64,000 nt of DNA from a virus (IMGVR_UViG_3300045988_103765); one strand, 5' to 3'. Shown: positions 4,602 to 50,029, counted from the first letter of the stretch. The notes: a model not told the origin generated them from the letters alone. Program-made: numbers and translations.

Positions 4602-7600
4602 TTAATCGGGTAATATCCTAACATTTACACCATTTCCTGCGGCAGTAGAAATATTTACCGTCCAAACTTGAATGGCTTGAAGTATCTGATAGCTACTACG
4701 CATTTGAAGCAACATCTGCGACATTGTGCCTGCATTGACATTAGTCATATCCCATATACCCTGCATGATAGTAGTTTGCTGAAATACTTGCTGGCTTACC
4801 ATATTCATATAGGCTTCTAATGCACCAGCAGTTTCTTCGGTCACCGAAGAGATTCCTTTCTGTAATGAAGAAAGGGCTGCGTCTTTCACTCCACTACCGA
4901 ACTCTATACCAAGCTGACCCATCAAGTTTTTTAAGTCCTCGTTTATCAAAGGAATTAGCTCTTTACCCAAGTCAGCTATCTGTTTGGCTTCTTCGGTGGT
5001 AATACCTACACCGCCAGCAGAGTTTTCTTCGGTAAATCTCTGAACCATAGCAAACATACTCTTCAACCGTTGTCCGACAATCTCAGAAGCAAGCGACTTG
5101 ACAATCATATTTGTTATTAAATCATCAAAGCTTTCCTCTAAATTTGCCATTGTATCAGTTCCTTCCTTCCAAGCTGAAATCCAAGAATCGGCAAAGCTTT
5201 CTGCGGCAGACTTCACATCTGTACCGAGCAAAGTGTTTACTATATTAGTAGTAGCATCATCAATGGCATTCTGTAAGTCGGTAACTTGACCCTCTAATTC
5301 TATGATTTTGTCTTGGTCGCGGTTTTTCTTCTTCCGGCTCTTTTCAAGTTGAAGCTGACGTTGAACTTCTGCAAGCTGTGCCTTCTGATTTGCAATAGCT
5401 GCCTTCTGCGCTGAAATTTCAGCTTTACCCATCGACTTATCAACAGCACGTTCAAGATTCTTATAAGCGTTCTCTAATTGCTTAACTCTTCTCTCGCTCT
5501 TTTCAACCTCTCTTGTGATTTTCTTGTTTCCGGCATTGAATATGGCTGATACTCCTTGCCAGATACCTCCTAATGTGTTGATTGTTCCACCTAATATATC
5601 CCCTCCTGCTATTTGAGCTATTCCTTGTGCAGCTTGTGAAGCACCTTGTATAGCTTCGCCAATAGTAGATATCGTGTCGGAAACTCCCTCGGAAAATCCC
5701 ATCTGTTCAAAGATGTTTCCTATGGAACTAACGGACATACCCAACTGACTTACATATTCAACAGTACTTTCAAATGAACCGTCAAGTCCTTTAAAGTTAT
5801 CCTTCAAATTCTCAACTTGGTCTGCAAGTAAAGCAAAAGGATTACGAGAATTTACTTCCGTCTTTAAAGCCTTAATACGTGCCATTAACTCTTTGTATTC
5901 ATTAATTGGCATGTTGGCTCTATTAGCTACCGCAAACCTCTCTATCTCGTCAATCATATTATTCAAAGACACTGTACTGATTGCATTCAAGTCTTGGAAT
6001 GACTTCTCCCAAGCATTAGAAGTATTCTTCCATTCCTCAAAAGCTATCTTAGTCTTTTCTTGTTCCGCACCAGTATCAACAGCAATAGAGAGCTTTGGAG
6101 CTTTCTCGTTTATAAAGTTCTGTATCTCTTCAATCTCACTTTCTATCTCCGCTCTTACATCGGGGCTTTCAGTCACAGACAACTGCAATTCCAGCTTCGC
6201 CAAATCAGAAGTTGCATCAGCAACTCTATTGGAGATAGAAGCTTGGTCTTCCAAACGTTTTCTTTCGACCTCTGCTATCTTATCCTCCATTTCAGCGTAC
6301 TTGTCTGCAATAGACTGGAAGTTCTTGAAATCATCCAATGCAGCTTTCTTGATAGTATCGCTTAACCTTTTCTGAATATCTTCAATAGCTTTTGAAGCGT
6401 CACTCTCATTCTGAACCATAGTATTAAGAGAGCTTTGCCAACTCTTAACCCTTATGTCGTTAGGATTCTTTTCGATTAAGTCTTGTAATCTCTCTTGTTC
6501 TTTTTGGAAGGATGAAACTTTTTCCCTCAAACTATTCAATGTAGCGTTAACATCAGCTTCCAATTGTTCAAGTGAAACGGGGTCATACTCAAACAAGCCA
6601 GCAAACAGTGAACCGAACTGCCCAGCACCTTCAATATCCAATTCTAATTCATAGCCTTGGAACATTCCCTCAATCTTACGTTTTGCCAAAGCAACACTTG
6701 CAGAGTTTATAGAGATAGAATATTCAATCTCGCTCTGTGCCTTCTTCCCGGCAACCAACTGTTTAGCTTCCGGTGATTTGAGGGTTTCAGCTATCTTGTC
6801 GTAGAACTTCGGAGCACTTCCTTTGTCAAAAGTAATCAAGTCGTTAATATCAACACTGACACCTTTAAACGCATTGTCGAATAAGTCTTGGTAAGCTTCC
6901 TTCACTTTTTCGGTAGCATAGGTTATATTGCCAGTGTCTTTCACAAGCTGCAAGAACTTCTTCTGAATATCATCTACCAACTTAATCTGTTGTTTCAGCA
7001 AATCCATTTCCTCCTTTTTGGATTTATTCAAATCCTTTTGGGAAGTAAGATTTATCCTTAAAGAATTAGCAATCTCACGAACCATCTTAATTCGCTGTTG
7101 CGTCCATTCTTTTGATTCATCATCAACTAATAGTCCCTCATTGATTAAGTCTTCTTGCTTCTTTAATTCCTTGTACTCTTTCTTTAGACGGTCTGTATAA
7201 TCAAATATACCTTCGTCCTCTTTGAACTTAAAGATATTGCCTATCCTTTCATTTTTAGATGTAATATCATCTACAATAGCCTGCCATTTAGATAAGGCTT
7301 TTGTTTCATCGTCAGTAGGTTCTTTAAGCCCAGACAAGCTATCATTAGCTTTTTGAATGGAAGCGTTTATAGAAGCTAACTCTTTTTGCATTTTCTGCAA
7401 ATTCTCAAATGCAGCTTTCTCTTCCTTTTCAGAAGCCGGACGGGTATAAATCTCACCAGCCATTCCAGCTACAACTTCAACAAGCCCTTTATTATATAAT
7501 TGGGATTGTTTAGCTATATCTGTAATTAATTGGTCCCTTCTCTTTTCAAGTTCAGATAGTTGTTGCTCCGTACCTTTTATGTTAGACTGACTTAATGCTT

Positions 7601-21236: not shown

Positions 21237-21616
21237 AAAAGGTTCTTCTCCTAATAATCCTTTTGCCTCTTTTGTTTTCATGCCGAACTGCAAAAGACTT
21301 GGAGAAAAATACAGAAATAAAAGAGATTATCAAAGAACGGCATGACACTTTAATGGTACACACAAGAGATAGTATCTATTTTTCTGTTATTCAAAAAGGC
21401 GATACTGTTTTTAATACTAAGTATATTGAAAAAATCAAGTACATAGACAGAACAGTCATACAGAATGATACTATATATCAAGAGAAAGAAGTCATTAAGG
21501 AGAAAGAAGTCATTAAGAAGCATGTTCCATCATGGTGCTGGTGGCTTTTACTAATTAATGCAGCAATCATAGGAATAATCGGAATTAAATACTACGTAAA
21601 ATGGCGAACGAAGTAA
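21233..21616 (+). CDS. unimolecular spanin (u-spanin)
   Basis: N-terminal lipoprotein signal with lipobox LFSC, plus a C-terminal TM segment (WCWWLLLINAAIIGIIGI). Overlaps the endolysin stop. Confidence 0.55.
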   Translation: MKKVLLLIILLPLLFSCRTAKDLEKNTEIKEIIKERHDTLMVHTRDSIYFSVIQKGDTVFNTKYIEKIKYIDRTVIQNDTIYQEKEVIKEKEVIKKHVPSWCWWLLLINAAIIGIIGIKYYVKWRTK

Positions 21617-24600
21617 ACCCTATACTGAATATATACAATGAAGATGGCACTCCCTTCCACGACATCAGTTTGAGAAAACACACTTTCTCAACTATTGTTA
21701 TGTCGTTAAATGACAAGATAGAAGGAGAGTTTTATTATAAAGACAATTCACTTTCGTTTACTCTGCAAGAATATGTAGAGTATAAAGGAATAAAGTACAT
21801 TCTTAAAAATCCTCCCGTAGTTGTTAGAAAAGGAATGACTTCGGAAAACAGCGAGGCAAAGGGAATGACTAAATATAGTTGTACTTTCTACCATGAAATG
21901 ATTGAATTGTACAACATTCCCTTTACTGACATTGCTATTAGTAGCAGTGAGGAAAGTTATCGCAGCGAAAAACGGACTTTCTCGTGGATTGGTACATTAA
22001 GCATGTTCGTTCAAAAAATCAACTCATGTCTTGTCGGAACTAAATGGACTTGCAAGTTACAGCCAACATTTGTAGATGATGGGACAATGAGTGATGTGTT
22101 ATCATTCAGCAATCAATTTATTTCAGACGTTTGCAAGACTGCATACGAAACATGGAAAGTCCCATTTGTAGTTGATGGATATACTATTTGGTTTGGCAAG
22201 CCATCTAAGGAAATACTCGACGATGAAAACAAGCCATACATATTCAAATTCGGACAAGGTGTAGGACTGAAAAACAACGATTGCACACCAAAGAATAATA
22301 AGGTCATTACTCGTATTGCTGGATATGGTAGCAACATTAATATTCCGTATGGCTATCCTATAATTACAGATGCAGACGGAAATCGCATTGAGCACCCATA
22401 TACTCGTGACACGTTAATGCCATCAGTATATGTAGAGGCAGTTAGAAATAAAGTCTTGTTTGGTTCTAAAAAACCTCTTATTGACTACTATGACGCAGAT
22501 AGCAGCTATCCTACTCCTATCAATCCTCTTGCACCAGTATTCCATATCCAAGAATTTTCCAGCATACAACCTACTATTGAAGGTATGACATACAAGGGAC
22601 AAGCTATTGACTTGTTCAAAGAAGTAATAGTACCAGAAGGTGGCTGGGATGATTATATTGACCCCGAAACGGGAGAGGTTAGACAGTCGTATTTTGATGT
22701 GACGCTTTATCCTCTTGGCTTTGACTTATATGCACAAGCAGCAGTTACAAGTGGAATGACCTTCTCCATGAAGTCCGGTGACACATTAGGAGCTAACTAC
22801 GAGGTAGCAGTAGATTGGGAAGATGTAAAAAAGAACTTCTATGTAACTGATGAAGCTGGAAACATTGTATTCAAACCAAATGGAGAACAGAGGGACTATG
22901 CTAAATATCCAGACAGTACAGACCAAGCTATTACTATTAAACTGACAAAGGACTTAGATACATTTGGTACGATAATGCCAAGCAAGTTCCAGCAAGTTAA
23001 AACTGGCGACAAGTTTGTCATATTGCACATTGAAATGCCACAAGCATATATAGACAAGGCACAAGAACGTTTGGACGTCGCCATGAAAAGATATATGCTT
23101 GAAAATAATATGCCTTTGTATGACTATCCTTTGAGCTTCGACGAACACTTCTTGGAAACAAACCAAGCAATTCTTGCGCAGATTAAGCCTAATACTATTG
23201 TCAGATTCTTGTATAAAGACAATGAGGACGCTATGGAATTATCCGTAAAGGAAATGTCAATCCAATATGGTACAAATCCCCTTCCTACTTATAATATTAC
23301 CTTAACGGACGAAGTGTCTATTGTACTGAATCAGATAGGACAGATAGCTGATGGACTTAGCAAGTTAGGAAGCCAAGTAGCACAGTTACAAGCTATTTAT
23401 GGACTTGACATTGTAGGCGAACTGAACAAAAAACTCAGCAGAGTTAAAGATGATACCGCACAAGGAATGATAACTTTCTTGCGTGGATTGAAAGTCGGTA
23501 GCTATGTGACCGGAAGTACGGGCGGTATATTCTATGCAGATACAGACGGAAAATCACATGCAGAGCTTGATTATCTGACAGTAAGAATGAAAGCCATGTT
23601 CTATGCTTTGGAGATTATCAAGACCGGAGTTATCGGAGGTCGCCAAATGATTACTCCCGGTGGTGCAATCGAATGTATCAAGATAGAAGATAGAAATGAT
23701 ATACTTGACGAAGAAGGTAACAAGACTGGCGAGAATGTTTGGGACTATTGGAGATGTTACTTCTATCAAGATGATGGTACAGAAGCGTTAGATAATCGTT
23801 TCCGCGCTGGGGATATGGCTTTAGCACAAGACTTCAATATTAAGGAGGGAGTTTATGAGAATGTGTCAAATCATTACTTCTGGCGTTTAGTCGTAAACGT
23901 AGGAACTAATTACATTGACATCTCAAAAACTGATGCTGATGCAGCCAGTGATGCACCACGAGTAGGAGATACCATTTGCCAATTAGGTAATAAGACCTTT
24001 GTTGATGCAAATGGTGTTACTCATGTAGAGGACAAGACAAGACAGAATGCAATTATCTTTAGTGCAGTTGACACTTTCTCACCAAGTATGACTTTATATG
24101 CTGGCATAAACAGCTATTCATACCTCAACAAAGAGTATGTGTCCTATGGTGTTGATAAGACCACAAATCTCGCTTATATGAACGTCTATGGCAACTCTTA
24201 TATCGGAGCAAGAGATAAGAGCAGCTATATGAAGTTTGATACGGTAACTGGTGTTGAGATAAAAGGTAAACTTGTAACTAAATCCGGCAAAGACGTTGAG
24301 GAAACATTCAACAGCTTTCAAGACCAGATAGATGGAGTAAAGGAAACTTGGTACGGAGAATATACACCAACTCTTACTAATCAGCCAGCAGTTGATTGGA
24401 ACACAGAAGCTTTGAAAAAACGGCATGAAGGTGATGTATTTACCAATATCCAAGAATATGTCGATGATGAAACTACTCCCGATGCAGGCAAATCATGGAG
24501 ATGGGTAAAGACGGGAGATACATGGGGATGGAAGCAGATTGCAGATAATGACACTTCAAAGGCTTATCTTGAAGCAGCTAAAGCTCAAAAGGCAGCAGAA

Positions 24601-27600
24601 GAAGCTAAGAAAGAAGCCAATGACGCAAAGCAGACTGTAACCAATATGAAAGACTTCACAGACGAAGCCTTTAAAGACGGTATTGTTGACAGACAAGAAG
24701 CTGCTGCGATTGAGAAATATTTGAACTCAATTAAATCAATACAGAAGAGCGTAGCTGAATCTTATTCTAAGGTTTATGGTAATCCTTTATTGTCCGGTAC
24801 TGCTAAGGTAGAACTAAAAACCGCTTATGATGGATTTAATGTGGCAACTACCGAGCTTATTACTGCTATTGATGATGCCATAGCTGACGGAGTAGCTACC
24901 TCAACGGAAGTCGCTTTGGTAGATGGTAGGTACGACACCTTCAATACCAAATATGGAGATTTTATAGCTTATTTGAATGCAGCCAACAACTTTATCCAAG
25001 ACAAAATAAACACTTCCGCAGAAGATGCGAAGAAAGCTGCGGAAGAGGCTCAAAAGGCGGCAGATGCAGCTAAAGCAGAAGCGGAAGCAGCAAAACAAAG
25101 ATTGGATAAGTGGGCAGAAGATGGAGTTATATCTCCTACTGAAAAACAATCAATCAAAGACGAGATAGTCCGCATAGACGCTGATAAGACTAATATTACA
25201 GCAGGATATACTTTGTATTCATTGGGTAGCCCTACGGGTTATCTGAATGCTCATAGCAATTATCGTGCAGTGTTGGTTACATTATCTGCTTCTACTCCCG
25301 AAAATATAACTATACCTTCTGACTTCGCTTCAAAGCAATCTGCGTACTACAATCAACGAACGGCAGCTTTGAATGCCATCAGTGACGCAGCTAAGGCGGC
25401 AGTAGATACCGTTAAAAAAGACTTGGCTGGTTATGAATATCTAAAGAAAGCGTGGAAAGAGAGTACCACAATCGAAGGTGGTGTTATTCAGAATGCGTTA
25501 AACATGCTGGGATATACTGACCCGGTAGCTGGATTTAAAGTAATGTCCGGTATGAATGGTGTCTATGATGCTACTAAGGTCGGTGGAGGTATTGCTTCTT
25601 GGTATGGAGGTTCTATGAAGGATAGAGCAGATTATACAGAAGCAAACATGCCATCAGATGTAGCAAAGGCTATCATTCGTATGGATGGCTCTGGCTACCT
25701 TGCAAGCGGTGCTGTATGGTGGGGGACTGATGGTGTTTTCCATGCTGACCCACAATCATTCATCATCAAAAAAAATCAGCTTGGCGACTATGTTTCTCTA
25801 TTCCAGATTGTATATCGTTCTGGAACTCCGAAGACTATTAGCTACATGATACCACAATATCCAATGCAGAAATTGACAGTTTCCGACTACATCGAAATAG
25901 GAACAACTGGGTATCGCATTGGAGTGGATAGTGCCAATAATGCTATTAAAGTCTACAAAGAAGATGGCTCGGCTGTTAACTTCTACGCAAGCGGTGCTGT
26001 ATCTGCAAAAGGTATCAGTTCCGGTAGTGGCGGTGGAGGAGGCGGTCTTATTGACACCGTTTATGGATATTCAAGTTTAGGTGGCACTTTTGCTGATTCA
26101 ACATTATCAGACACCTTTAACGCATACACTATCAACAAGTTGGCAAGTAGAATTACTGAACTTGAAAAGAATGGTGGTGGAGGTACTGGCATTGCTGGTA
26201 TCAAAGTTAACGACCAAACTTATGCGCCAGACACAAGCAAGTATATTACGCTCCCAAACTACCCTTCCACTACTATTACTGGAACGGGAAATGTCCTTAC
26301 CAACGCTACTTATGACAATAGTACGCGAGTACTGACATTAACTAAAGGCAATATTGCTACTACCGCCAACCATTTAGAGAGATATGCTCAAATAACCTCT
26401 ACTGCGATAGATACTGTATCTACATTTACAGCATCTAAGACATCTGTATGGGAGGCAAATGGTACTGCATATGGAACTACTGGTGCTAATGATACTGTAT
26501 TAAACATTGGTTCTGCGGCAAATAGGTTATTCCAATTAAGAGCAGCCTATAATTCTGATGATTTTTACTTTAGAGGTGTTGGTGCAAGTTCTTTCAGAAC
26601 TTGGTATAAAGTTCTGCACGAAGGTAACTACGCCTCTGCCTTAGATAGTAAATATCTGAAACTTTCTGGTGGAACATTGACGGGAGTACTAACTGTTGGA
26701 GATACTTCAACTATTGCAGAAGTAGTTACAATTAAAACAAGGAATGTAAATGGAAATCATATTCAATTTGTAAGTAATACAATACCTACAGCTGAAGTAG
26801 GATATCTTACGTCTTTTGGAGCTTACCTATACAATGATAAACTTGATAGCCATCCTACATTATGTTTAGGATTAGCTGATAATTTAAGAGATGCTATAAT
26901 ATACAGATATGCAGGAGTTAATTATAATGTATGGCATTCCGGAAGTCTTAAACCATACCAATTCACTAATTGGGCTGATACAAAAAGCGTAAATCATGTG
27001 CCTAATGACTATGATAGTTTATTTATTATGAGAGGCATTAAGAATTTAACTACTATTGGGCTTTCCGGTGGTGGAGTTTATGCAACTGTATGGGGTTGGA
27101 GAGGATGGCTGGATAGAACTGGAGGGCATGCTTGGGAAATAGCTTCAACTAATGAAGATTTATATACTCGTCACGGAGAAACTACTTCTTGGACTTCGTG
27201 GGCAAAGATACTTAATAGCTCCAATTATCAAAACTATCCAAATACAAAAGTAGGAATTAGCGACTTTTGGTTATACCCAGAACATAGTAATGAGATTAAC
27301 TTTGGAGGCACATATACAGGTAGTAATCATATCTACTTTGGATATCGTTCAAAAGATAATAGACCAAGAACTACTGAATATCATTTTGGGCAAAATGATG
27401 CAAGTTTACATGGGGAATATTTCCAGTCATATATACCTACTGGCACACAGCCGTTTCAGTGTGTATCTACTACTACGTGCACGAATTTGAATGCGGATAT
27501 GGTAGACGGATATCATTCTAATGATTTAACTAAAAGGGTGTTTATCGCTGGAATATCCGGAGGTGCAGGTTCTAAATGGATAAGAATTGGTGTTTTAAAA

Positions 27601-28956
27601 TATCCGGGTACAGGTGATTCTAACACTGTAATGATAACTATATCGAATTCTTATTCATATTCAATGAATAGGTCTGTAACTTTTATAATATCATTGACAC
27701 ATCATGAAAGTAAACCTATAATAACACAATTGAATGGTTATCCTGATCTATTTAAAGCAGTAAGAATTTTAGCTCCCAAAGACAGTAATGGAAGTTATAC
27801 ATATGGTGATAGATATGTAGACATATCCTATTCTACTTCAGCTGCAAGTGAAGCATCCAATACTATTTATTTAACTGCTATAAATCTTAATTATAAGGAT
27901 TCGTATCATTTTATTCCAAATAAAAACTTTGTAGATGGAACAACTATTCCTTCTAATTATGGTGAAATATGGAATTTTCCTTTTACTACTGGCTTAGGTA
28001 GTAATGCTAATATATATTCACAAAATGGTTTGATTGAGGGAGGGACTTTAAAACTAAGTTCTACAAGTACTTTTGCTGGTAAAGCTACATTCAACGGAGG
28101 GCTATCTGGAACATTGACGGGTTCTCTAAGTGGTAATGCTACAACCGCTACAACCTTACAGACTTCACGTACAATAAATGGTACATCGTTCAACGGTTCA
28201 GCTAATATTACAACTTCTTATTGGGGAACTACAAGAACGATTTGGGGACAGTCAGTAAACGGGTCGGCAAATGTCAGTGGAGCTATGACTGGGGTTACAA
28301 GCATTACTGCAACTGGTCTTATAAGAACTTCAAATCTGTTCTCTGCTGGCGATGGAGGAAGCGATAATGCGTATGGTTATTATAACTGTACTCGTCCCAA
28401 TACAGCTAATACCGGATATGTATGCTATGCAATGGTTAGAAGTGGTACTATAGCAATGGGACTTGGATATTATAATAATGAAATTGTTTTAGGTAATGCA
28501 GGTACTTCAAGACAATTTAATGAAAAATGGTTACAAATAAGTGGTTCCAGATTACTAATTAATGGCAATATAGAGGCAACTGGCGCAGTTACAGCCAAGT
28601 CTTCCTCTTCTGACATAAGATTGAAGAAAAATATCAAAGAATACAATGCTTTGGATATTATTCACAAGTTAAAGTCAGTGAAGTATTACTGGAATGATAC
28701 CGCAAAAGCAAACTCTCCAATCTTTAATGACAATGAGGAGCATTACGGACTTATTGCACAAGACTTGCTAATAAATGGATATAGCCAATGGGTAAGTAAC
28801 TGTTTTAAAGATTATTATGTAATACAATACGAACGTTTAATACCCGTATTATGGCGAGGTATTCAGCAAGTAGATAATGAGGTAGCTACCCTCAAAAAGA
28901 AGATAGCTACCTTAGAAAAAGAACTTAGTTCTGTAAAGAGGCAACTAAGCCTTTAA
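21601..28956 (+). CDS. tail fibre / host-specificity protein (2451 aa) with C-terminal S74-type intramolecular chaperone
   Basis: Contains fibre motifs (TLQTSRTINGTSFNGSANI), coiled coils (KAAEEAKKEA), a poly-Gly linker, and a C-terminal SSSSDIRLKKNI...HYGLIAQDL segment typical of the auto-cleaving chaperone. Confidence 0.85.
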   Translation: MANEVNPILNIYNEDGTPFHDISLRKHTFSTIVMSLNDKIEGEFYYKDNSLSFTLQEYVEYKGIKYILKNPPVVVRKGMTSENSEAKGMTKYSCTFYHEMIELYNIPFTDIAISSSEESYRSEKRTFSWIGTLSMFVQKINSCLVGTKWTCKLQPTFVDDGTMSDVLSFSNQFISDVCKTAYETWKVPFVVDGYTIWFGKPSKEILDDENKPYIFKFGQGVGLKNNDCTPKNNKVITRIAGYGSNINIPYGYPIITDADGNRIEHPYTRDTLMPSVYVEAVRNKVLFGSKKPLIDYYDADSSYPTPINPLAPVFHIQEFSSIQPTIEGMTYKGQAIDLFKEVIVPEGGWDDYIDPETGEVRQSYFDVTLYPLGFDLYAQAAVTSGMTFSMKSGDTLGANYEVAVDWEDVKKNFYVTDEAGNIVFKPNGEQRDYAKYPDSTDQAITIKLTKDLDTFGTIMPSKFQQVKTGDKFVILHIEMPQAYIDKAQERLDVAMKRYMLENNMPLYDYPLSFDEHFLETNQAILAQIKPNTIVRFLYKDNEDAMELSVKEMSIQYGTNPLPTYNITLTDEVSIVLNQIGQIADGLSKLGSQVAQLQAIYGLDIVGELNKKLSRVKDDTAQGMITFLRGLKVGSYVTGSTGGIFYADTDGKSHAELDYLTVRMKAMFYALEIIKTGVIGGRQMITPGGAIECIKIEDRNDILDEEGNKTGENVWDYWRCYFYQDDGTEALDNRFRAGDMALAQDFNIKEGVYENVSNHYFWRLVVNVGTNYIDISKTDADAASDAPRVGDTICQLGNKTFVDANGVTHVEDKTRQNAIIFSAVDTFSPSMTLYAGINSYSYLNKEYVSYGVDKTTNLAYMNVYGNSYIGARDKSSYMKFDTVTGVEIKGKLVTKSGKDVEETFNSFQDQIDGVKETWYGEYTPTLTNQPAVDWNTEALKKRHEGDVFTNIQEYVDDETTPDAGKSWRWVKTGDTWGWKQIADNDTSKAYLEAAKAQKAAEEAKKEANDAKQTVTNMKDFTDEAFKDGIVDRQEAAAIEKYLNSIKSIQKSVAESYSKVYGNPLLSGTAKVELKTAYDGFNVATTELITAIDDAIADGVATSTEVALVDGRYDTFNTKYGDFIAYLNAANNFIQDKINTSAEDAKKAAEEAQKAADAAKAEAEAAKQRLDKWAEDGVISPTEKQSIKDEIVRIDADKTNITAGYTLYSLGSPTGYLNAHSNYRAVLVTLSASTPENITIPSDFASKQSAYYNQRTAALNAISDAAKAAVDTVKKDLAGYEYLKKAWKESTTIEGGVIQNALNMLGYTDPVAGFKVMSGMNGVYDATKVGGGIASWYGGSMKDRADYTEANMPSDVAKAIIRMDGSGYLASGAVWWGTDGVFHADPQSFIIKKNQLGDYVSLFQIVYRSGTPKTISYMIPQYPMQKLTVSDYIEIGTTGYRIGVDSANNAIKVYKEDGSAVNFYASGAVSAKGISSGSGGGGGGLIDTVYGYSSLGGTFADSTLSDTFNAYTINKLASRITELEKNGGGGTGIAGIKVNDQTYAPDTSKYITLPNYPSTTITGTGNVLTNATYDNSTRVLTLTKGNIATTANHLERYAQITSTAIDTVSTFTASKTSVWEANGTAYGTTGANDTVLNIGSAANRLFQLRAAYNSDDFYFRGVGASSFRTWYKVLHEGNYASALDSKYLKLSGGTLTGVLTVGDTSTIAEVVTIKTRNVNGNHIQFVSNTIPTAEVGYLTSFGAYLYNDKLDSHPTLCLGLADNLRDAIIYRYAGVNYNVWHSGSLKPYQFTNWADTKSVNHVPNDYDSLFIMRGIKNLTTIGLSGGGVYATVWGWRGWLDRTGGHAWEIASTNEDLYTRHGETTSWTSWAKILNSSNYQNYPNTKVGISDFWLYPEHSNEINFGGTYTGSNHIYFGYRSKDNRPRTTEYHFGQNDASLHGEYFQSYIPTGTQPFQCVSTTTCTNLNADMVDGYHSNDLTKRVFIAGISGGAGSKWIRIGVLKYPGTGDSNTVMITISNSYSYSMNRSVTFIISLTHHESKPIITQLNGYPDLFKAVRILAPKDSNGSYTYGDRYVDISYSTSAASEASNTIYLTAINLNYKDSYHFIPNKNFVDGTTIPSNYGEIWNFPFTTGLGSNANIYSQNGLIEGGTLKLSSTSTFAGKATFNGGLSGTLTGSLSGNATTATTLQTSRTINGTSFNGSANITTSYWGTTRTIWGQSVNGSANVSGAMTGVTSITATGLIRTSNLFSAGDGGSDNAYGYYNCTRPNTANTGYVCYAMVRSGTIAMGLGYYNNEIVLGNAGTSRQFNEKWLQISGSRLLINGNIEATGAVTAKSSSSDIRLKKNIKEYNALDIIHKLKSVKYYWNDTAKANSPIFNDNEEHYGLIAQDLLINGYSQWVSNCFKDYYVIQYERLIPVLWRGIQQVDNEVATLKKKIATLEKELSSVKRQLSL
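28057..28075 (+). repeat. inverted repeat, left arm (AGTTCTACAAGTACTTTTG), inside the fibre gene
   Basis: A perfect 19-nt inverted match to 29944..29962. It is in codon phase and encodes SSTSTF. Confidence 0.9.
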
Positions 28957-29917
28957 GCCTATTAATCTCTGATTTAGCATGTTCCAATTCCTTTCTCATT
29001 CGTTCTTGCTCTGATTCAACAAGACGGATAGAAAGGATATTGGCTTGCACAGAACCAATGATTGTTGCGGTAAGGTCGGGAGATAAATAATTCAAGCTAC
29101 CATATCCATATTCATCCTTTTCGTGACAGAAATTTGTGATACCAGCTTTCACCGCATTTTGATATACAAGTCCGGTATGACGTTTATTGTCTATCCTATC
29201 TTGGTATAAATCCAATGCTTTTTTGTTATAATTATAGTCATAAACTCTGCCAAGTTTTAGTAGTCTTTCTCGGTAATCTATAAGCCCATCGTAATTCTCT
29301 TTTAATCTAAAGTCAGAAGTAGCTTTAGCGGTGATTGCAGCCGTAGCAGTAATACTTCCAGTAAAAGCCCATGTACTACCATCATATTCCATAACATACG
29401 ATTTATTTGTAGAGCTTGTCGGGTTAGCAGTACCTCTCCACCAATGCCACAAACCATTTGAATGACAGCCAAGTCCCATTGTATAATTACCTCCAACAAT
29501 TTCAATGCTATCATGGCTTGTATTTGCAAATCTTGCTCCTACATTATAAGCCTTAGCACCACTTCCAGTTATTCCCGTACTATTTATCCAACCATGTAGG
29601 GTGCAATCTCCAAATTCCATATTTGCCCAAGATGAACTGCTTCCTGCCCGCCAATACCATTTTTTAGGAACAGACCTACCGCCATAACTTGCACCTCTAT
29701 AATTAACATGAAACTCAGTGCCTCCAGCTATAATAATCTCATTTCCACCGCTTGAAAGTTCCAAATAAGAACCATTTTGGGTTATACCAGATGGATTCAT
29801 ATAAAGACCAGAATTAGCATAGACCCAAGCTTGAATATACGCATCTATAAATCTATTGCTACTTGAACCTATTCTGTAATTATTATTGCTTAACGGAAAG
29901 ATATTACCAGAATACAT
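28925..29917 (-). CDS. alternative tail-fibre C-terminal cassette with S74-type chaperone (apparently silent in this orientation)
   Basis: Contains the fibre motif NYRIGSSSNRFIDAYIQ and SDFRLKENY...HTGLVYQN. The frame is open without a start codon up to 30001 and includes the inverted repeat. No minus-strand -7 box lies upstream. Confidence 0.6.
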   Translation of the reverse strand: MYSGNIFPLSNNNYRIGSSSNRFIDAYIQAWVYANSGLYMNPSGITQNGSYLELSSGGNEIIIAGGTEFHVNYRGASYGGRSVPKKWYWRAGSSSSWANMEFGDCTLHGWINSTGITGSGAKAYNVGARFANTSHDSIEIVGGNYTMGLGCHSNGLWHWWRGTANPTSSTNKSYVMEYDGSTWAFTGSITATAAITAKATSDFRLKENYDGLIDYRERLLKLGRVYDYNYNKKALDLYQDRIDNKRHTGLVYQNAVKAGITNFCHEKDEYGYGSLNYLSPDLTATIIGSVQANILSIRLVESEQERMRKELEHAKSEINRLKGLVASLQN

Positions 29918-29943
29918 TCCACCATTAAAAGTTGCAGTTTCAC

Positions 29944-29962
29944 CAAAAGTACTTGTAGAACT
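29944..29962 (-). repeat. inverted repeat, right arm
   Basis: Reverse complement of 28057..28075. It lies 9-15 codons upstream of ATG 29917, in frame. Confidence 0.9.
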
Positions 29963-30015
29963 AAGGTTTGTATCAAATTGGTAGCCAGATATTTGGTGCT
30001 TTCAAAAAAACACCT

Positions 30016-30023
30016 TATTTTTG
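30016..30023 (+). promoter_or_regulatory. -7 box TATTTTTG
   Basis: The same octamer as the late promoters, 16 nt upstream of ATG 30040. Confidence 0.4.
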
Positions 30024-30039
30024 CACATAACAAATTGAT

Positions 30040-30780
30040 ATGAATATGAAGTTTAGAGATTACATTGACCTTGCAGAAAAGTATGAGGTAGAGAGTTTTA
30101 TCAAGTCTGACCCTATACAATTCCCACGAAGATTTAAGGATAGAAAAGACATCGAAGTAGCGGCAGTCATAGCAGCTTGGCTTGCTTATGGCAGGCGTTC
30201 AGTATTCATTCCCAAAATAGATTATATTCTTACAGAGATAATGGGGAATAAGCCTTTTCAATATATATATGGCGTGGAATGGAATAAATACAAGGATAAT
30301 TATACGAGCTTATACCGTATGACTTCTTGGCATTGCTTTGCTTCCCTTTGTGATAAACTTCATTCCATATACATGAAGTACCCTAATCTTGAAGATGCTC
30401 TTGGACGTGTTACTTATTCGCAGAAATGTACCTACTATTGCCAAGGATTATGCCATTTATTACATGGTGAAACAATGATACCCAGTCCAAACAGTAATTG
30501 TGCAAATAAAAGAGTGAACATGCTACTTAGATGGATGATAAGGAAAGATAGTGTAGTTGACATTGGATTATGGAAAACTCTATCACCTTCTCGGCTTCTT
30601 GTTCCTTGTGATACACATTCTTTGCAGTCGGCAGTTGAATTTGGAATTATCCCCAAAGTAGATGAATCAAGAAAGACTTGTATAAAAGTGACTGAATTTG
30701 CAAAAAAAGTATTTCCTTCTGACCCTGCAAGGTTGGATTTTAGTTTGTATGGCTATGGAGTGGAGAAATCAGAGAAATAA
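30040..30780 (+). CDS. TIGR02757 / DUF2400 family protein
   Basis: The N-terminal pattern DPIQFPRRF..D.E.AA.IAAWLAYGRR and the ~246-aa length are as I recall for this family. Confidence 0.6.
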   Translation: MNMKFRDYIDLAEKYEVESFIKSDPIQFPRRFKDRKDIEVAAVIAAWLAYGRRSVFIPKIDYILTEIMGNKPFQYIYGVEWNKYKDNYTSLYRMTSWHCFASLCDKLHSIYMKYPNLEDALGRVTYSQKCTYYCQGLCHLLHGETMIPSPNSNCANKRVNMLLRWMIRKDSVVDIGLWKTLSPSRLLVPCDTHSLQSAVEFGIIPKVDESRKTCIKVTEFAKKVFPSDPARLDFSLYGYGVEKSEK

Positions 30781-37135: not shown

Positions 37136-37984
37136 TTACTTCTTGCTACCAACGTTTTCATCAACTATTTTAGCATCATCAAACATTGCTGCTACCTTTG
37201 ATGCTTTATCCTTATCAATCAAAGGCTCGTCACCAGCAACATCTACATAATCCGGAGTATCTGCACTGCGGAATATAGCTTGGTCATCCCGTATAGCATT
37301 CTGCATTTCAACTGACAATGGAGCTTTCCGAGATAAGTGCAACTTAATTATGGTCTTTCGGCACATTTCATGGAAATCAGTTACCCATTTTGAACTGTCA
37401 CGCACATTAGCATACTGACTTTTATATGTCTGCGAATAGCGCAGACCGTGAGCTTTCAGTTCCTCTACTGACATATATAATGTGCTCTCAAATCCGTTCA
37501 AAAGCTGGAAGTAAGATACATAACCGATAATGGGAAGTTCAGAACGCCTTTTATCGTCTTGTTCAAAATTAAAATCTATTTGACCCGTCAATCGGTTGCG
37601 GTTTATAAGCTCTCCTTCTCGTACATCTGTACAATTAATGCACTTGAACTGACCGCTTCGCAATGCCAACTGCACATAAGCCTTATACCCAATCTGAAAT
37701 TGCGCTTCCGTAATACCTAACTTATTGTTCTTGTAAGGTATCAGATAAGCACAACCGAAAGATGGGTCAAGCGGCAAATCGGATGCAGTAGCACGAATAG
37801 CACCATACATAAGCGTTGCTGGCTCACATTCCTGCAATTTTGCATTGTTAGCTACTAAAGATACCAAGTTGCTTACAAAAGCATCCTTTTTATCACTCAA
37901 TACCTTTTTCAAATACTCTTGGGTTGCATTGTGGGATATGTAGCTATTCAGCCTTTGCAATCCCGTTACTTTGTTCTCGCTCAT
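37136..37984 (-). CDS. recT: RecT-family single-strand annealing protein
   Basis: The N-terminal pattern (..KKVLSDKKDAFVSNLVSLVANNAKLQECEPATLMYGAIRATASDLPLDPSFGCAYLIPYK) is typical of RecT. It lies adjacent to an exonuclease gene. Confidence 0.8.
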   Translation of the reverse strand: MSENKVTGLQRLNSYISHNATQEYLKKVLSDKKDAFVSNLVSLVANNAKLQECEPATLMYGAIRATASDLPLDPSFGCAYLIPYKNNKLGITEAQFQIGYKAYVQLALRSGQFKCINCTDVREGELINRNRLTGQIDFNFEQDDKRRSELPIIGYVSYFQLLNGFESTLYMSVEELKAHGLRYSQTYKSQYANVRDSSKWVTDFHEMCRKTIIKLHLSRKAPLSVEMQNAIRDDQAIFRSADTPDYVDVAGDEPLIDKDKASKVAAMFDDAKIVDENVGSKK

Positions 37985-38366
37985 ATTCTTTTAAAATTAA
38001 TTGATATTGTTCTTCTGTAAATTCCTTCCAGTCTAAAATCATAACCCTATACCCAGTTTCCTTCTCTATAAGATTACGGTAATACTCCACATTGAAAAAA
38101 TCATCTTCTTTAGGTAGAAATAAAGAAGCTTGACCTCTACTATGATAATAGACAATGTACCAATAAGAAACGGCAGGAGCATCAATACATGAATATACTA
38201 CACTGCCAATATAACCTAAAAAGAGAATGCCTAAGACTATCCATACTAATGTACTACTAATGGAGTAAAGAAGATGTCCTATGCAAAGCACACCAATTAT
38301 AGACAATATGATAAAGAGGAGAGAAACTATCTCTTTCCCCACAGCCTTTATAATCTTACTTTTCAT
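37944..38366 (-). CDS. small membrane protein (2-3 TM)
   Basis: Hydrophobic N-terminal half. Overlaps both neighbours. Confidence 0.5.
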   Translation of the reverse strand: MKSKIIKAVGKEIVSLLFIILSIIGVLCIGHLLYSISSTLVWIVLGILFLGYIGSVVYSCIDAPAVSYWYIVYYHSRGQASLFLPKEDDFFNVEYYRNLIEKETGYRVMILDWKEFTEEQYQLILKEYEREQSNGIAKAE

Positions 38367-39339
38367 CCTTCACCTCCTTAGTCTTAATCAGTACATAACC
38401 TTTCTTCTTGACTTCCTTCTGGTATTTAGCAAGCAGTTCGGGATGCTCAGAAGCAAACTTTACCTTATCGAATTGCATAGATATGGCTTCATCTACTCTA
38501 CTAATAGTGAAATAGGGGGTCTTTACGCTCTTGATTTCATTCTTGCACAAGAAATCATAGAAACGGGATTTAAATTCCTCTATGCTGTCCTGCTTCTCCT
38601 TTATTGAAACAAGGATATTGTTTACTTGCTTCATCTGTTCTTGAACCTCGGCAGGCAAATAATCCCAATCTATTTCCTCACGTTTGTATTCAGTCATTTC
38701 GGACACGTACTGGGCGGCAATATCCATGCCAGAGGAAATATCAAATACTGGCTTCTTGAATATCACTTTCTTTCTGCTTATCTTATCGGGGTCAAAGGCA
38801 AACTGTAGCTGAAATTCGTCCTCAAACATAACAGAAGCATCATAGTGGCAAAGTTCAAGCTTGAAATCAGCACCTAACTGCTCTGCCAATTCCTTACCAA
38901 GCACATACTCAACATAAAGTTGTTCCTTATAATCTTTATAAGTCTGCTCGATGTCAGTAGTAGTAGCCTTACATTCGACCCATAAGAGCAATGGCTTATC
39001 CCTACTCTCGTCAAAAAGAGAGAAATCAATATGCACGAGCAAACCAAGTCCTTCACGCCCGTATTTCTGACTTCTAAAGCATTTATTGCTCTCCCAACGC
39101 TCATCTACTTGCACCAAGCTGTCATAAATCATATTTTCTATGAAATCACCGTACTGCATGGCAATATTAGTAATGTTTGGTCTTTCATACAGACCTTTGG
39201 CAATGGCAAGACGCTCTACTTGTGCTCTTTGAACACAACCGTTCTTGGCTATAGCGGCAAGAATACGGGCATCTGACCCACCGAGATTCCCAACTCTGGA
39301 CGATATAATTTCGTCCTTGTAACCATAATTGTTCTCCAT
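38356..39339 (-). CDS. YqaJ/lambda-Exo-like PD-(D/E)XK exonuclease
   Basis: Contains GGSDARIL near the N-terminus and HIDFS..VECKAT (D..E.K). It is the partner of RecT. Confidence 0.75.
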   Translation of the reverse strand: MENNYGYKDEIISSRVGNLGGSDARILAAIAKNGCVQRAQVERLAIAKGLYERPNITNIAMQYGDFIENMIYDSLVQVDERWESNKCFRSQKYGREGLGLLVHIDFSLFDESRDKPLLLWVECKATTTDIEQTYKDYKEQLYVEYVLGKELAEQLGADFKLELCHYDASVMFEDEFQLQFAFDPDKISRKKVIFKKPVFDISSGMDIAAQYVSEMTEYKREEIDWDYLPAEVQEQMKQVNNILVSIKEKQDSIEEFKSRFYDFLCKNEIKSVKTPYFTISRVDEAISMQFDKVKFASEHPELLAKYQKEVKKKGYVLIKTKEVKDEK

Positions 39340-48608: not shown

Positions 48609-49208
48609 ATGGATAATAGCAATAATGAGATATGGAAAGATATTATTGGATTTGAGCAATATTATCAAGTAAGCAATTTAGGTCGTGTTAGAAGCAAAGA
48701 TAGAATTGTCATAACTCCTAAAACTTCTTATTTTAAAAAAGGAAGAATATTAATTCCTTCTTTAGATGGCAAAGGAAATTATTTATTTGTAGGTCTACAT
48801 GTTAACAATAAAGTTAAACTTATCTATATTCATAGATTGGTTGCTCAGAATTTTATACCAAATCCTCACAACTATAAGCAAGTTAACCATATCAATGAAA
48901 ATAAAAAAGATAATAGGGCAGATAATTTAGAATGGTGTACAGCTGAATATAATATGAACTATGGTACAGCCATGCAAAGGGCGAAAGAAACCTATGCTTC
49001 ACATTATGATAGGAGTGCTATTGCTAAAAATAATGCTATTAAAAAGAAAGTTATACAATATACACTTGATGGCAAGTATATTAAAGAATGGGATTCTTTA
49101 ACAGATATACAAAATGAATTAGGCTTTTGCAGAAGCAATATCTCAAAATGTTGTGAAGGGAAGTATAAACAAGCTAATAACTTTATATGGAAATTTAAAA
49201 AAGATTGA
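48609..49208 (+). CDS. HNH homing endonuclease (NUMOD4 + HNH_3 type)
   Basis: The N-terminus EIWKDIIGFEQYYQVSNLGRVRS is NUMOD4-like. HRLVAQNFIPNP..QVNHINENKKDNRADNLEW is the HNH part. Confidence 0.8.
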   Translation: MDNSNNEIWKDIIGFEQYYQVSNLGRVRSKDRIVITPKTSYFKKGRILIPSLDGKGNYLFVGLHVNNKVKLIYIHRLVAQNFIPNPHNYKQVNHINENKKDNRADNLEWCTAEYNMNYGTAMQRAKETYASHYDRSAIAKNNAIKKKVIQYTLDGKYIKEWDSLTDIQNELGFCRSNISKCCEGKYKQANNFIWKFKKD

Positions 49209-49210
49209 TT

Positions 49211-50029
49211 ATGAAAAAGTTTGTATCATGGAGAAGGGTTTCTACCATATATCAAAAGAAAACCGGGTTGGGTCTTGAATCACAAAAAAATATAATAAAT
49301 CATTTTGTTCAAATAGAAAACGGAACTTTAATAGCTGACTTTTGCGAAGTATATACGGGTAAGGACCTAAATGAATGCACTGAATTAAGGAAGGCAATAT
49401 CTTTTGCAAAAGAAAATAATGCAATATTAATAATAGCTAAAACTGACCGATTTAGAAATACGGTTGAAGCATTACAAATATATGACGAAATGGGAGAAGG
49501 AAATATTTATTTTTGTGATATTCCACATACAGACAAATTTACCCTTACCTTATTTTTCGCTTTGGCAGAAAGGGAAGCTTTATTAGTATCTATAAGAACA
49601 AAGGCAGCTTTAGCGGTGAATAAAGCAAAAGGCATACTATCTGGACGTGCTAATAGTAATTATCAAATTAAAGATGAAACAAAAGAAAAAGCTATTCTCA
49701 AAGGGGCTATTACAAAAAATAAAGCTACGATTGAAAGTGAAGAATTTTCTTGTTTCTGTAGAATACTACGAAAAGTGATACCTATACTGAATGAAAATTC
49801 TACGGATGAAGAACTATTCTTCTTAAACTGGACTAAATACCGTACAAGTTTTGTCCTTACTAAAGATTACAAAGCGGAAATAAAGGAACTCATGCAGGAA
49901 GCTAATAGGAACAACAGCAAACTGTTTATCGGAGTTGACTTCACGAATGCTAATTTTTATCAGTATATTAGTAGCCGCGTACAAGCTACGTTCAATTCAA
50001 TTTCTAAATACAAAGAATATAACTTATGA
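49211..50029 (+). CDS. small serine recombinase (resolvase/invertase catalytic domain, atypical C-terminus)
   Basis: Contains WRRVSTIYQ (catalytic Ser), KTDRFRN and an E-helix (ALAEREALLVSIRTKAALAVNKAKG). The C-terminal ~120 aa has no recognisable HTH. Confidence 0.7.
   Translation: MKKFVSWRRVSTIYQKKTGLGLESQKNIINHFVQIENGTLIADFCEVYTGKDLNECTELRKAISFAKENNAILIIAKTDRFRNTVEALQIYDEMGEGNIYFCDIPHTDKFTLTLFFALAEREALLVSIRTKAALAVNKAKGILSGRANSNYQIKDETKEKAILKGAITKNKATIESEEFSCFCRILRKVIPILNENSTDEELFFLNWTKYRTSFVLTKDYKAEIKELMQEANRNNSKLFIGVDFTNANFYQYISSRVQATFNSISKYKEYNL

Follow-up and report, generated by a model that had tools for sequence, protein, structure and literature searches.

In the G segment of phage Mu (invertase Gin), the C segment of phage P1 (Cin) and the Pin system of e14, inverted repeats lie inside a fibre gene, and a constant N-terminus is continued by one of two C-termini, the unexpressed part sitting promoter-less on the other strand. 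In Mu and P1 the gene of the serine recombinase adjoins the segment, and a separate chaperone gene (U/U') lies within it. The Min system of plasmid p15B and the shufflon of R64 have nested segments and combinatorial C-termini, and the R64 enzyme Rci is a tyrosine recombinase. In Bacteroides fragilis the serine recombinase Mpi works on sites remote from the gene that encodes it, and it flips promoters, not coding segments. Here we analyse a fibre locus in a 64,000-nucleotide (nt) stretch of viral DNA, IMGVR_UViG_3300045988_103765 (the window), in which positions 28057-29962 probably form a programmed switch that reversibly inverts DNA and so exchanges the C-terminal tip of a giant tail protein. 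An earlier note, made from the sequence of the window, had proposed such an inversion, and this reading is supported by relatives in both orientations and by an inversion published for phages in culture. The locus is a fibre switch of the Mu G/P1 C type, and a nested, shufflon-like version of it is present in relatives.

The logic of Mu and P1, which the earlier note had invoked, is recovered here in the in-phase repeats, the start-less partial paralogue and the occurrence of both orientations in nature. As in those phages, the part that is not expressed lies on the other strand without a promoter of its own, though a promoter-like box is present here in the repeat core, and the candidate enzyme is a serine recombinase. 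In contrast to Mu and P1, the host is Bacteroides, the sites are unlike hix and gix, the segment holds no separate chaperone gene but its tips carry an intramolecular S74-type chaperone, and the enzyme gene is not adjacent but 19 kb off, encoding a protein of 274 amino acids (aa) with a non-Hin C-terminal domain. The locus has in common with Mpi the class of recombinase, the distance between enzyme gene and sites, and the host genus. It is the setting that is new: a giant tail protein of a Bacteroides phage with tips that carry their own chaperone, sites of an unusual kind, and a serine recombinase that is both distant and atypical. The coordinates of the features are collected in Table 1.

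Table 1. Features of the window that bear on the fibre switch, in order of position.
Feature	Position	Strand	Description
Giant tail/fibre gene	21601..28956	+	2451 aa; constant part codons 1-1666, module T1 (~490 codons), tip A
Orphan outer site S2	26586..26606	+	AAGTTCT-TTC-AGAACTT-GGTA, in frame, SSFRTWY; boundary of constant part and module
S1 left copy	28057..28075	+	AGTTCTACAAGTACTTTTG, tail gene codons 2153-2158, SSTSTF
Tip A	28057..28956	+	299 aa, ends ..RQLSL; currently expressed; Peptidase_S74 at ~28609-28767
Invertible segment	28076..29943		1868 nt between the cores; two convergent tips inside
Tip B cassette	28925..29962	-	345 codons, ends ..LVASLQN; currently silent; weak Peptidase_S74 match at ~29144-29317
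S1 right copy	29944..29962	-	Same codon phase as left copy, SSTSTF
Fixed leader	29963..30004	-	TGA 30004-30002 plus 13 sense codons (KHQISGYQFDTNL), start-less; outer flank of the switch
RecT single-strand annealing protein	37136..37984	-	PF03837, E=2.2e-38
Candidate invertase	49205..50029	+	274-aa serine recombinase; N-terminal catalytic domain, all-helical C-terminal domain

The inner repeat, S1, consists of AGTTCTACAAGTACTTTTG inside the tail gene and its exact reverse complement at the far end of the segment. With one mismatch allowed the two copies agree over 22 nt, and at 76% identity the similarity reaches 51 nt (28050-28100 and 29919-29969). With up to three mismatches allowed, the 18-nt core occurs at two places only in the 64 kb, where 0.12 would be expected; the perfect 19-nt inverted repeat described in the earlier note was thus reproduced at its coordinates and is beyond chance. 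Translation agrees with the note's further claim that both copies lie in one codon phase and have homologous flanks, since SSTSTF is followed by AGKATFNGG at one copy and by GETATFNGG at the other. On the minus strand, as the note had also described, the frame is open from TGA 30004-30002 and its first ATG, GTG or TTG is the ATG at 29917, from which an open reading frame (ORF) of 330 aa runs over 28925-29917. The statement that the 122-bp spacer lacks a minus-strand TAnnTTTG box was not strictly true. The S1 core contains TACTTTTG on the coding strand of the cassette (29951-29944), 27 nt upstream of ATG 29917, and a -7-like box therefore does exist. With a TTTG in the leader, this box makes up a Bacteroides promoter-like element, TTTG-N22-TACTTTTG, at 29944-29990 (minus strand), before ATG 29917; the promoter-like motif shows no enrichment in the window (86 matches versus 77 expected).

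The only close phage in GenBank is Bacteroides phage C3_41T2LP (OR296439, host B. uniformis MB20-41), which is 93-98% identical to the window in the switch region. Its tail protein of 2498 aa ends ...KLSSTSTFGETATFNGGMYSGNIFPLSNNNYRIG...LQN, which is the silent tip B of the window, and the window's tip A (...RQLSL) lies on its minus strand, start-less, behind the leader TGA-KHQISGYQFDTNL-SSTSTF. The segment is 98.2% identical to that of the window and lies on the opposite strand, with both flanks colinear at 97-98%. The search for the opposite orientation in relatives, which the earlier note had put forward as a check, was positive in C3_41T2LP and in at least ten further contigs, and the tail protein ending in tip B bears out the expected in-frame fusion of the cassette to the tail gene. 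In GenBank, the counterpart of the cassette in C3_41T2LP is annotated as a separate coding sequence (CDS) beginning at an internal ATG.

An inversion at this place has been reported before. The nine C3 'Meggiephages' isolated by Hedzet, Rupnik and Accetto (Sci Rep 2022, PMC9727126) have genomes of 74.2-74.7 kb with differences below 0.1%. A dot-plot comparison by these authors revealed in six of the genomes an inversion of ~2 kb in a putative tail-fibre gene, which had arisen during plaque-purification passages. The flip in this sister phage is real and fast, and the published inversion concerns the same segment in the same phage family as the window. The window is a distinct genome of that family: its recombinase allele is a different one, and it has an HNH gene in addition. 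Repeats, reading frames, cassette logic, a second tier, a mechanism or an enzyme are not described in that paper, which tabulates ORF64 as 'integrase ... dna-invertase (Phyre2)' (PMC9727126). In the literature searched, we found no paper on C3_41T2LP by name and none dissecting an invertible fibre in a Bacteroides phage, PMC9727126 being the only source with a statement of relevance. The inversion itself is already published; what is new, as far as the searched literature shows, is its anatomy, the second tier, the candidate enzyme and how widely it is spread in gut metagenomes. Chance or an assembly artefact was considered as an explanation and rejected, because the core is far beyond chance, a plaque-purified complete genome shows the other orientation, and a dot-plot comparison of isolates has been published.

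A search with the core yielded 41 stretches from IMG/VR; of those from human-gut metagenomes about 35 are genuine, and the rest are single chance matches. The contigs of relatives carry L-numbers below, L001 being C3_41T2LP. Both orientations are frequent in these ~75 contigs of gut viruses and metagenomes and are interleaved among near-identical segments, and the breakpoints always fall inside the core. In L001, L008, L022, L030, L040, L104 and L144 the segment is reversed with respect to both of its flanks, at 95-98% identity. Beyond C3_41T2LP, at least ten contigs are inverted with respect to the window and about 20 have its orientation. The nearest neighbours are often opposite, such as L008 (inverted) and L037 (window-like) at 98.5% identity, or L040 (inverted) and L107 (window-like) at 99.2%. 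Orientation is thus uncoupled from sequence relatedness, and the flip must have happened repeatedly. Tip B is the expressed C-terminus in L001, L204, L200, L181, L182, L188, L201 and L208.

A census blind to the repeats was taken on 45 IMG/VR contigs fetched by the N-terminal 600 aa of the tail protein, which are 99-100% identical across these contigs. One-tier loci express tip A with tip B silent in seven contigs, the window included, and tip B with tip A silent in three, C3_41T2LP included. Among two-tier loci, which are described below, four express A over a silent B, five express B over a silent A, and four have a silent hybrid tip (AB208). The silent cassette is truncated in seven further contigs, and none was found in four. 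In all relatives the start-less leader is identical before S1 or S2 and never contains ATG, GTG or TTG; in most genomes the silent frame behind such a leader, 300-900 codons long, is uninterrupted. No ATG is found close by where the silent place is taken by tip A or by a whole module. The description of the region as a silent cassette, not an independent gene, is upheld, since the start-less leader and the upstream in-frame homology are kept in every relative and tip B is expressed after fusion, with the reservation that the core holds a promoter-like box and tip B an internal ATG. Some contigs have unusual products. Two S1 copies stand in direct orientation within one long fused tip (BA696) in L199 (15860 and 17051), three S1 sites occur on one contig (L106 10060/11965 with L127 125), and a 208-aa hybrid tip with an A-type start and a B-type end is found in L174, L175, L205 and L211.

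The outer site, S2, has a single match in the window (0 expected) and no inverted partner there. In many relatives S2 (AGTTCTTTCAGAACTTGGTA, SSFRTWY) has an inverted partner behind the leader, the pair lying, for example, at 7505-7548 and 12460-12503 in L133 and at 5048-5091 and 9724-9767 in L038. In 13 census contigs the leader is followed by S2, a module of ~550 codons, S1 and a tip, the whole stretch being open and start-less, and the order of sites is S2+ S1+ S1- S2-. The tail-gene copy of S2 in these two-tier relatives, inverted relative to the silent one, lies at about codon 1666. The architecture of the family is thus a constant part, S2, a module (T1, T2 or T3), S1 and a tip (A or B), and a silent set in mirror image follows a single fixed leader. 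All four states of T1/T2 by A/B were observed: T1-A over T2-B (L192, L133), T1-B over T2-A (L182, L201), T2-A over T1-B (L184, L214) and T2-B over T1-A (L208). No recombinant joining S1 to S2 was seen among the relatives. The window is a reduced, one-tier form: it has lost the silent module, and S1 directly follows the leader. More than two sites with nested segments, the hallmark of multiple-inversion systems, are found in the relatives, whereas the window has two S1 sites and the orphan S2. With Min and the R64 shufflon, the relatives share four sites, nested segments and combinatorial C-termini (module by tip), but there are only two tiers and two types of site here, the window having one tier; furthermore, no tyrosine recombinase like Rci is annotated in C3_41T2LP. 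An indel of ~148 codons upstream of S2 separates some relatives, placing S2 at codon 1666 or at codon 1814.

By their pattern of conservation, the cores of S1 and S2 behave as DNA sites and are more than peptide motifs. Four upstream contexts without relation to one another (T1, T2, T3 and the leader) occur in combination with at least eight downstream variants, all junctions falling within the core. When S1 copies were located by the peptide motif, 61 of 62 were identical over 18 nt; the 20-nt S2 core has AGTACT instead of AGTTCT in 3 of 52 copies and is otherwise identical. Third codon positions are invariant within the cores, whereas just outside them, in equally conserved peptides (ATFNGG and YK[IV]LHEGN), the majority base reaches only 47-66%. 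The two sites have a common motif, AGTTCT-N3-AG(T/A)ACTT (AGWWCT-N3-AGWWCT), which is present at three sites only in the 64 kb (0 expected), and S2 is a perfect 7-3-7 palindrome. We infer that AGWWCT-N3-AGWWCT is a protein-binding dyad. The 3-bp spacers differ, being ACA in S1 and TTC in S2, and this difference could keep the two tiers from cross-reacting.

On this basis the following mechanism is proposed. In the present orientation, the tail gene would be read through S1 into tip A, and tip B would stay silent behind the start-less leader of 13 codons. Recombination within the S1 core would flip the segment, fusing tip B after residue 2152 into a product of 2497 aa and moving tip A behind the leader. 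In two-tier relatives, a flip at S2 would exchange module and tip together and a flip at S1 the tip only. The reaction would be site-specific on AGWWCT-N3-AGWWCT, with the serine recombinase of the phage presumably acting in trans.

As to the enzyme, the earlier note had pointed to a distant serine recombinase, and an ORF with a Resolvase domain was indeed found, 19 kb from the segment. It matches PF00239 (E=3.4e-11) and phrog_125, 'DNA invertase' (E=8.9e-16); residues R11, S13, D81, R82 and E124 are conserved, and the RVST serine and the DR motif are present. Its homologue, at the syntenic position, is the only site-specific recombinase annotated in C3_41T2LP, and no further site-specific recombinase was noticed among the window ORFs examined. 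Most IMG/VR contigs bearing the inverted repeat also carry the recombinase gene, including every one of at least 73 kb except one 108-kb contig; the others lacking it are partial and at most 67 kb long. The protein family is large (~245-290 aa) and occurs on phage-sized contigs. In the switch-bearing family there are two alleles, whose catalytic halves are ~40% identical and whose C-terminal halves are nearly identical. An AlphaFold model (predicted local distance difference test score, pLDDT, 89.7) matched only serine-recombinase catalytic domains in Foldseek.

The relation of this protein to known invertases is restricted to the catalytic domain. Compared with the Hin/Gin/Cin/Pin family, it has the catalytic domain with the active-site Ser and Arg, and at 274 aa it departs from the size of ~190 aa with a Hin-type helix-turn-helix; its identity to Gin and Hin is 26-29%, in the catalytic domain only, and a search for hix half-sites at the repeats gave no match. 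Membership of the Hin/Gin family or of the Mpi family was therefore rejected, on size, C-terminus, sites and scores. A role as a prophage integrase was also considered and finds no support. The S1 core gave 22 single, scattered chance matches in 185,579 species-representative genomes, with no pair in Bacteroides, and the lack of a prophage copy there leaves an integrase role without support.

Adjoining the recombinase gene is an HNH/NUMOD homing-endonuclease gene (48609-49208), which is absent from C3_41T2LP. The block that diverges from C3_41T2LP (48617-49597) consists of the inserted HNH gene and the first ~130 codons of the recombinase, and the flanking sequence is 89-95% identical; the coincidence of the block with the inserted gene suggests homing-associated co-conversion. 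In another phage group (L073-L080), the catalytic half of the recombinase (72-85% identity) is joined to a different C-terminus. For this sister group with the same catalytic domain and another C-terminus, the query with the tail gene returned only the Meggiephage family.

It is probable, though by no means firmly so, that the serine recombinase encoded at 49205-50029 catalyses the inversion in trans. Several observations weigh against this assignment or against the switch as a whole, and they are considered here together with the explanations that they favour. Concerning the enzyme, the gene is 19 kb from the segment and not abutting it as a Hin-type gene would; its score with the NCBIfam Mpi model is 18.6 bits versus a cut-off of 272, so it is not a member of the Mpi family. 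The helical residues 157-273 gave no Pfam, PDB-sequence or Foldseek match and contain no recognisable helix-turn-helix. In another phage (L172) the homologue lies among small early genes, not beside fibre genes. In addition, a 3-bp spacer maps poorly onto the 2-bp stagger of serine recombinases. Invertases that work on remote sites are abundant in Bacteroides genomes. The 'Mpi family' is named in PMC9881135 among genes associated with inversions. It is accordingly conceivable, if rather unlikely, that the inversion is site-specific but performed by a host invertase, either an Mpi-like serine or a Tsr-type tyrosine recombinase, the phage recombinase having another job; the distance and atypical character of the phage enzyme, its failure to score as Mpi or Hin, and the position of its homologues among early genes in other phages would fit this. 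However, the phage gene is present on most contigs that bear the inverted repeat, its C-terminal domain is conserved in step with the invariant sites, and in a phage that does not integrate there is no other evident use for it. The S1 and S2 cores also seem unlike the site of Mpi.

Homologous recombination at short coding junctions, by the RecT/YqaJ proteins of the phage or by host RecA, is an improbable explanation, which would make the switch a by-product of modular fibre genes. The phage does encode RecT, and a RecT/YqaJ pair is annotated in C3_41T2LP. For Rad52-like phage recombinases, relaxed recombination has been documented (PMC3945230). Three T1 variants (e.g. L018, L019, L039/L041) read ..GGGACTTTAAACCTT|AGTTCT, the leader type, to the left of the core versus the usual ..AAAACTA|, and these leader-type bases resemble a conversion tract rather than the mark of a fixed crossover point. 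Products with direct S1 repeats and hybrid tips also exist. Against these stands the fact that the partner sites share merely 19-22 nt of identity, yet the flip occurred within a few plaque passages. Moreover, in four unrelated contexts the identity breaks off abruptly at the same positions, with no spread of conversion; the hexamer-N3-hexamer common to S1 and S2 has no coding reason; synonymous positions are frozen inside the cores only; and relatives show no rearrangement at other inverted repeats (27-31 nt) of these genes. The ORF next to recT (38356-39339), a YqaJ-like exonuclease by the annotation of C3_41T2LP, has no Pfam match in the window; the two would form a phage recombination module.

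A reading of the 330-aa ORF as a gene in its own right, with ATG 29917 as its start codon, the repeat as a mere peptide motif and exchange between phages as the source of the genome differences, is barely credible: the GenBank counterpart does start at an internal ATG and the TTTG-N22-TACTTTTG element could act as a weak promoter for the ORF, a point against the silent-cassette view, but the in-frame upstream homology and start-less leader are kept in every relative, no ATG is near when tip A or a module is silent, synonymous sites in the core are frozen, and the inversion arose among isolates less than 0.1% different.

Further points tell against a programmed switch itself. Of ~30 silent cassettes, seven are truncated (in L173, L176, L177, L203, L206, L207 and L209), and no cassette was found in L180, L193, L202 and L217, although the L193 locus ends too soon after the tip for certainty; truncated or lost cassettes imply that the switch is dispensable. 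Flipping in the window genome itself would follow from the behaviour of its relatives. In spot assays, isolates with and without the inversion had the same hosts (PMC9727126). Such assays could miss an effect, because the lysate of a fast-flipping phage would be a mixture and Bacteroides populations would be mixtures of capsule states. We still regard programmed, reversible inversion as the best account of positions 28057-29962.

The tail gene product has PHROG tail and tail-fibre matches, and its two tips are partial paralogues. They are ~27% identical over the last ~200 residues (201 aa) and unrelated before; the two reading frames converge, and the 32-nt overlap mentioned in the earlier note was confirmed (28925-28956). 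The note had also stated that both tips end in an S74-type chaperone. This stood for tip A, with a Peptidase_S74 match at E=2.9e-12, and for the SD[IF]RLK S74-type chaperone region that terminates both tips, whereas the profile match of tip B is weak (E=0.0014, 19.3 bits, under the 22-bit cut-off). A PDB sequence search with the tips gave no match of value. Tip A ranges from 194 to 459 aa in relatives (L001 8567-9950; L173, L184, L209, L213, L216). The spread apparently reflects how many copies there are of a tandem repeat of 82 aa (..SGSLSGNATTATTLQTSRTINGTSFNGSANITTSYWGTTRTFYINDPSG..); this is seen directly only in C3_41T2LP, with three copies versus one in the window. Further upstream, the region of the tail gene at 24562-25097 encodes alanine/glutamate/lysine-rich repeats of coiled-coil-like appearance. 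On the other side of the switch, a DUF2400 gene (30040-30780; PF09674, E=2.6e-57) directly adjoins the leader in the window and in relatives, and its TATTTTTG box (30016-30023) points away from the cassette.

Since both tips are the expressed C-terminus in many genomes, both are working fibre ends, and they probably bind different receptors. These receptors may be phase-variable surface structures within one host population, and not different strains. The anatomy of the locus explains the inversion that was left unexplained in the 2022 isolation paper (PMC9727126). It also carries a warning for annotation, in that a 'hypothetical protein' downstream of a tail gene can be a silent fibre cassette, as it is here, and it offers S1 and S2 as natural junctions for the swapping of tips in phage engineering. 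The locus provides exact sites, a frame logic, a cultured relative, a single candidate enzyme and dozens of natural variants in every state. A wider picture, which we advance tentatively and consider possible rather than probable, is that fibre shuffling in two tiers is family-wide in human-gut Bacteroides phages, is driven in trans over ~20 kb by a new subfamily of serine recombinases which read AGWWCT-N3-AGWWCT sites within coding sequence with their helical C-terminal domain, and tracks the capsule phase states of the host instead of serving a change of host strain. If true, the tracking of capsule states would explain why no shift in host range appeared in spot assays. Bacteroides hosts evade phages by flipping the promoters of capsules and surface proteins. 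A phage-side inversion switch would be the mirror image of this promoter flipping, in the same ecosystem.

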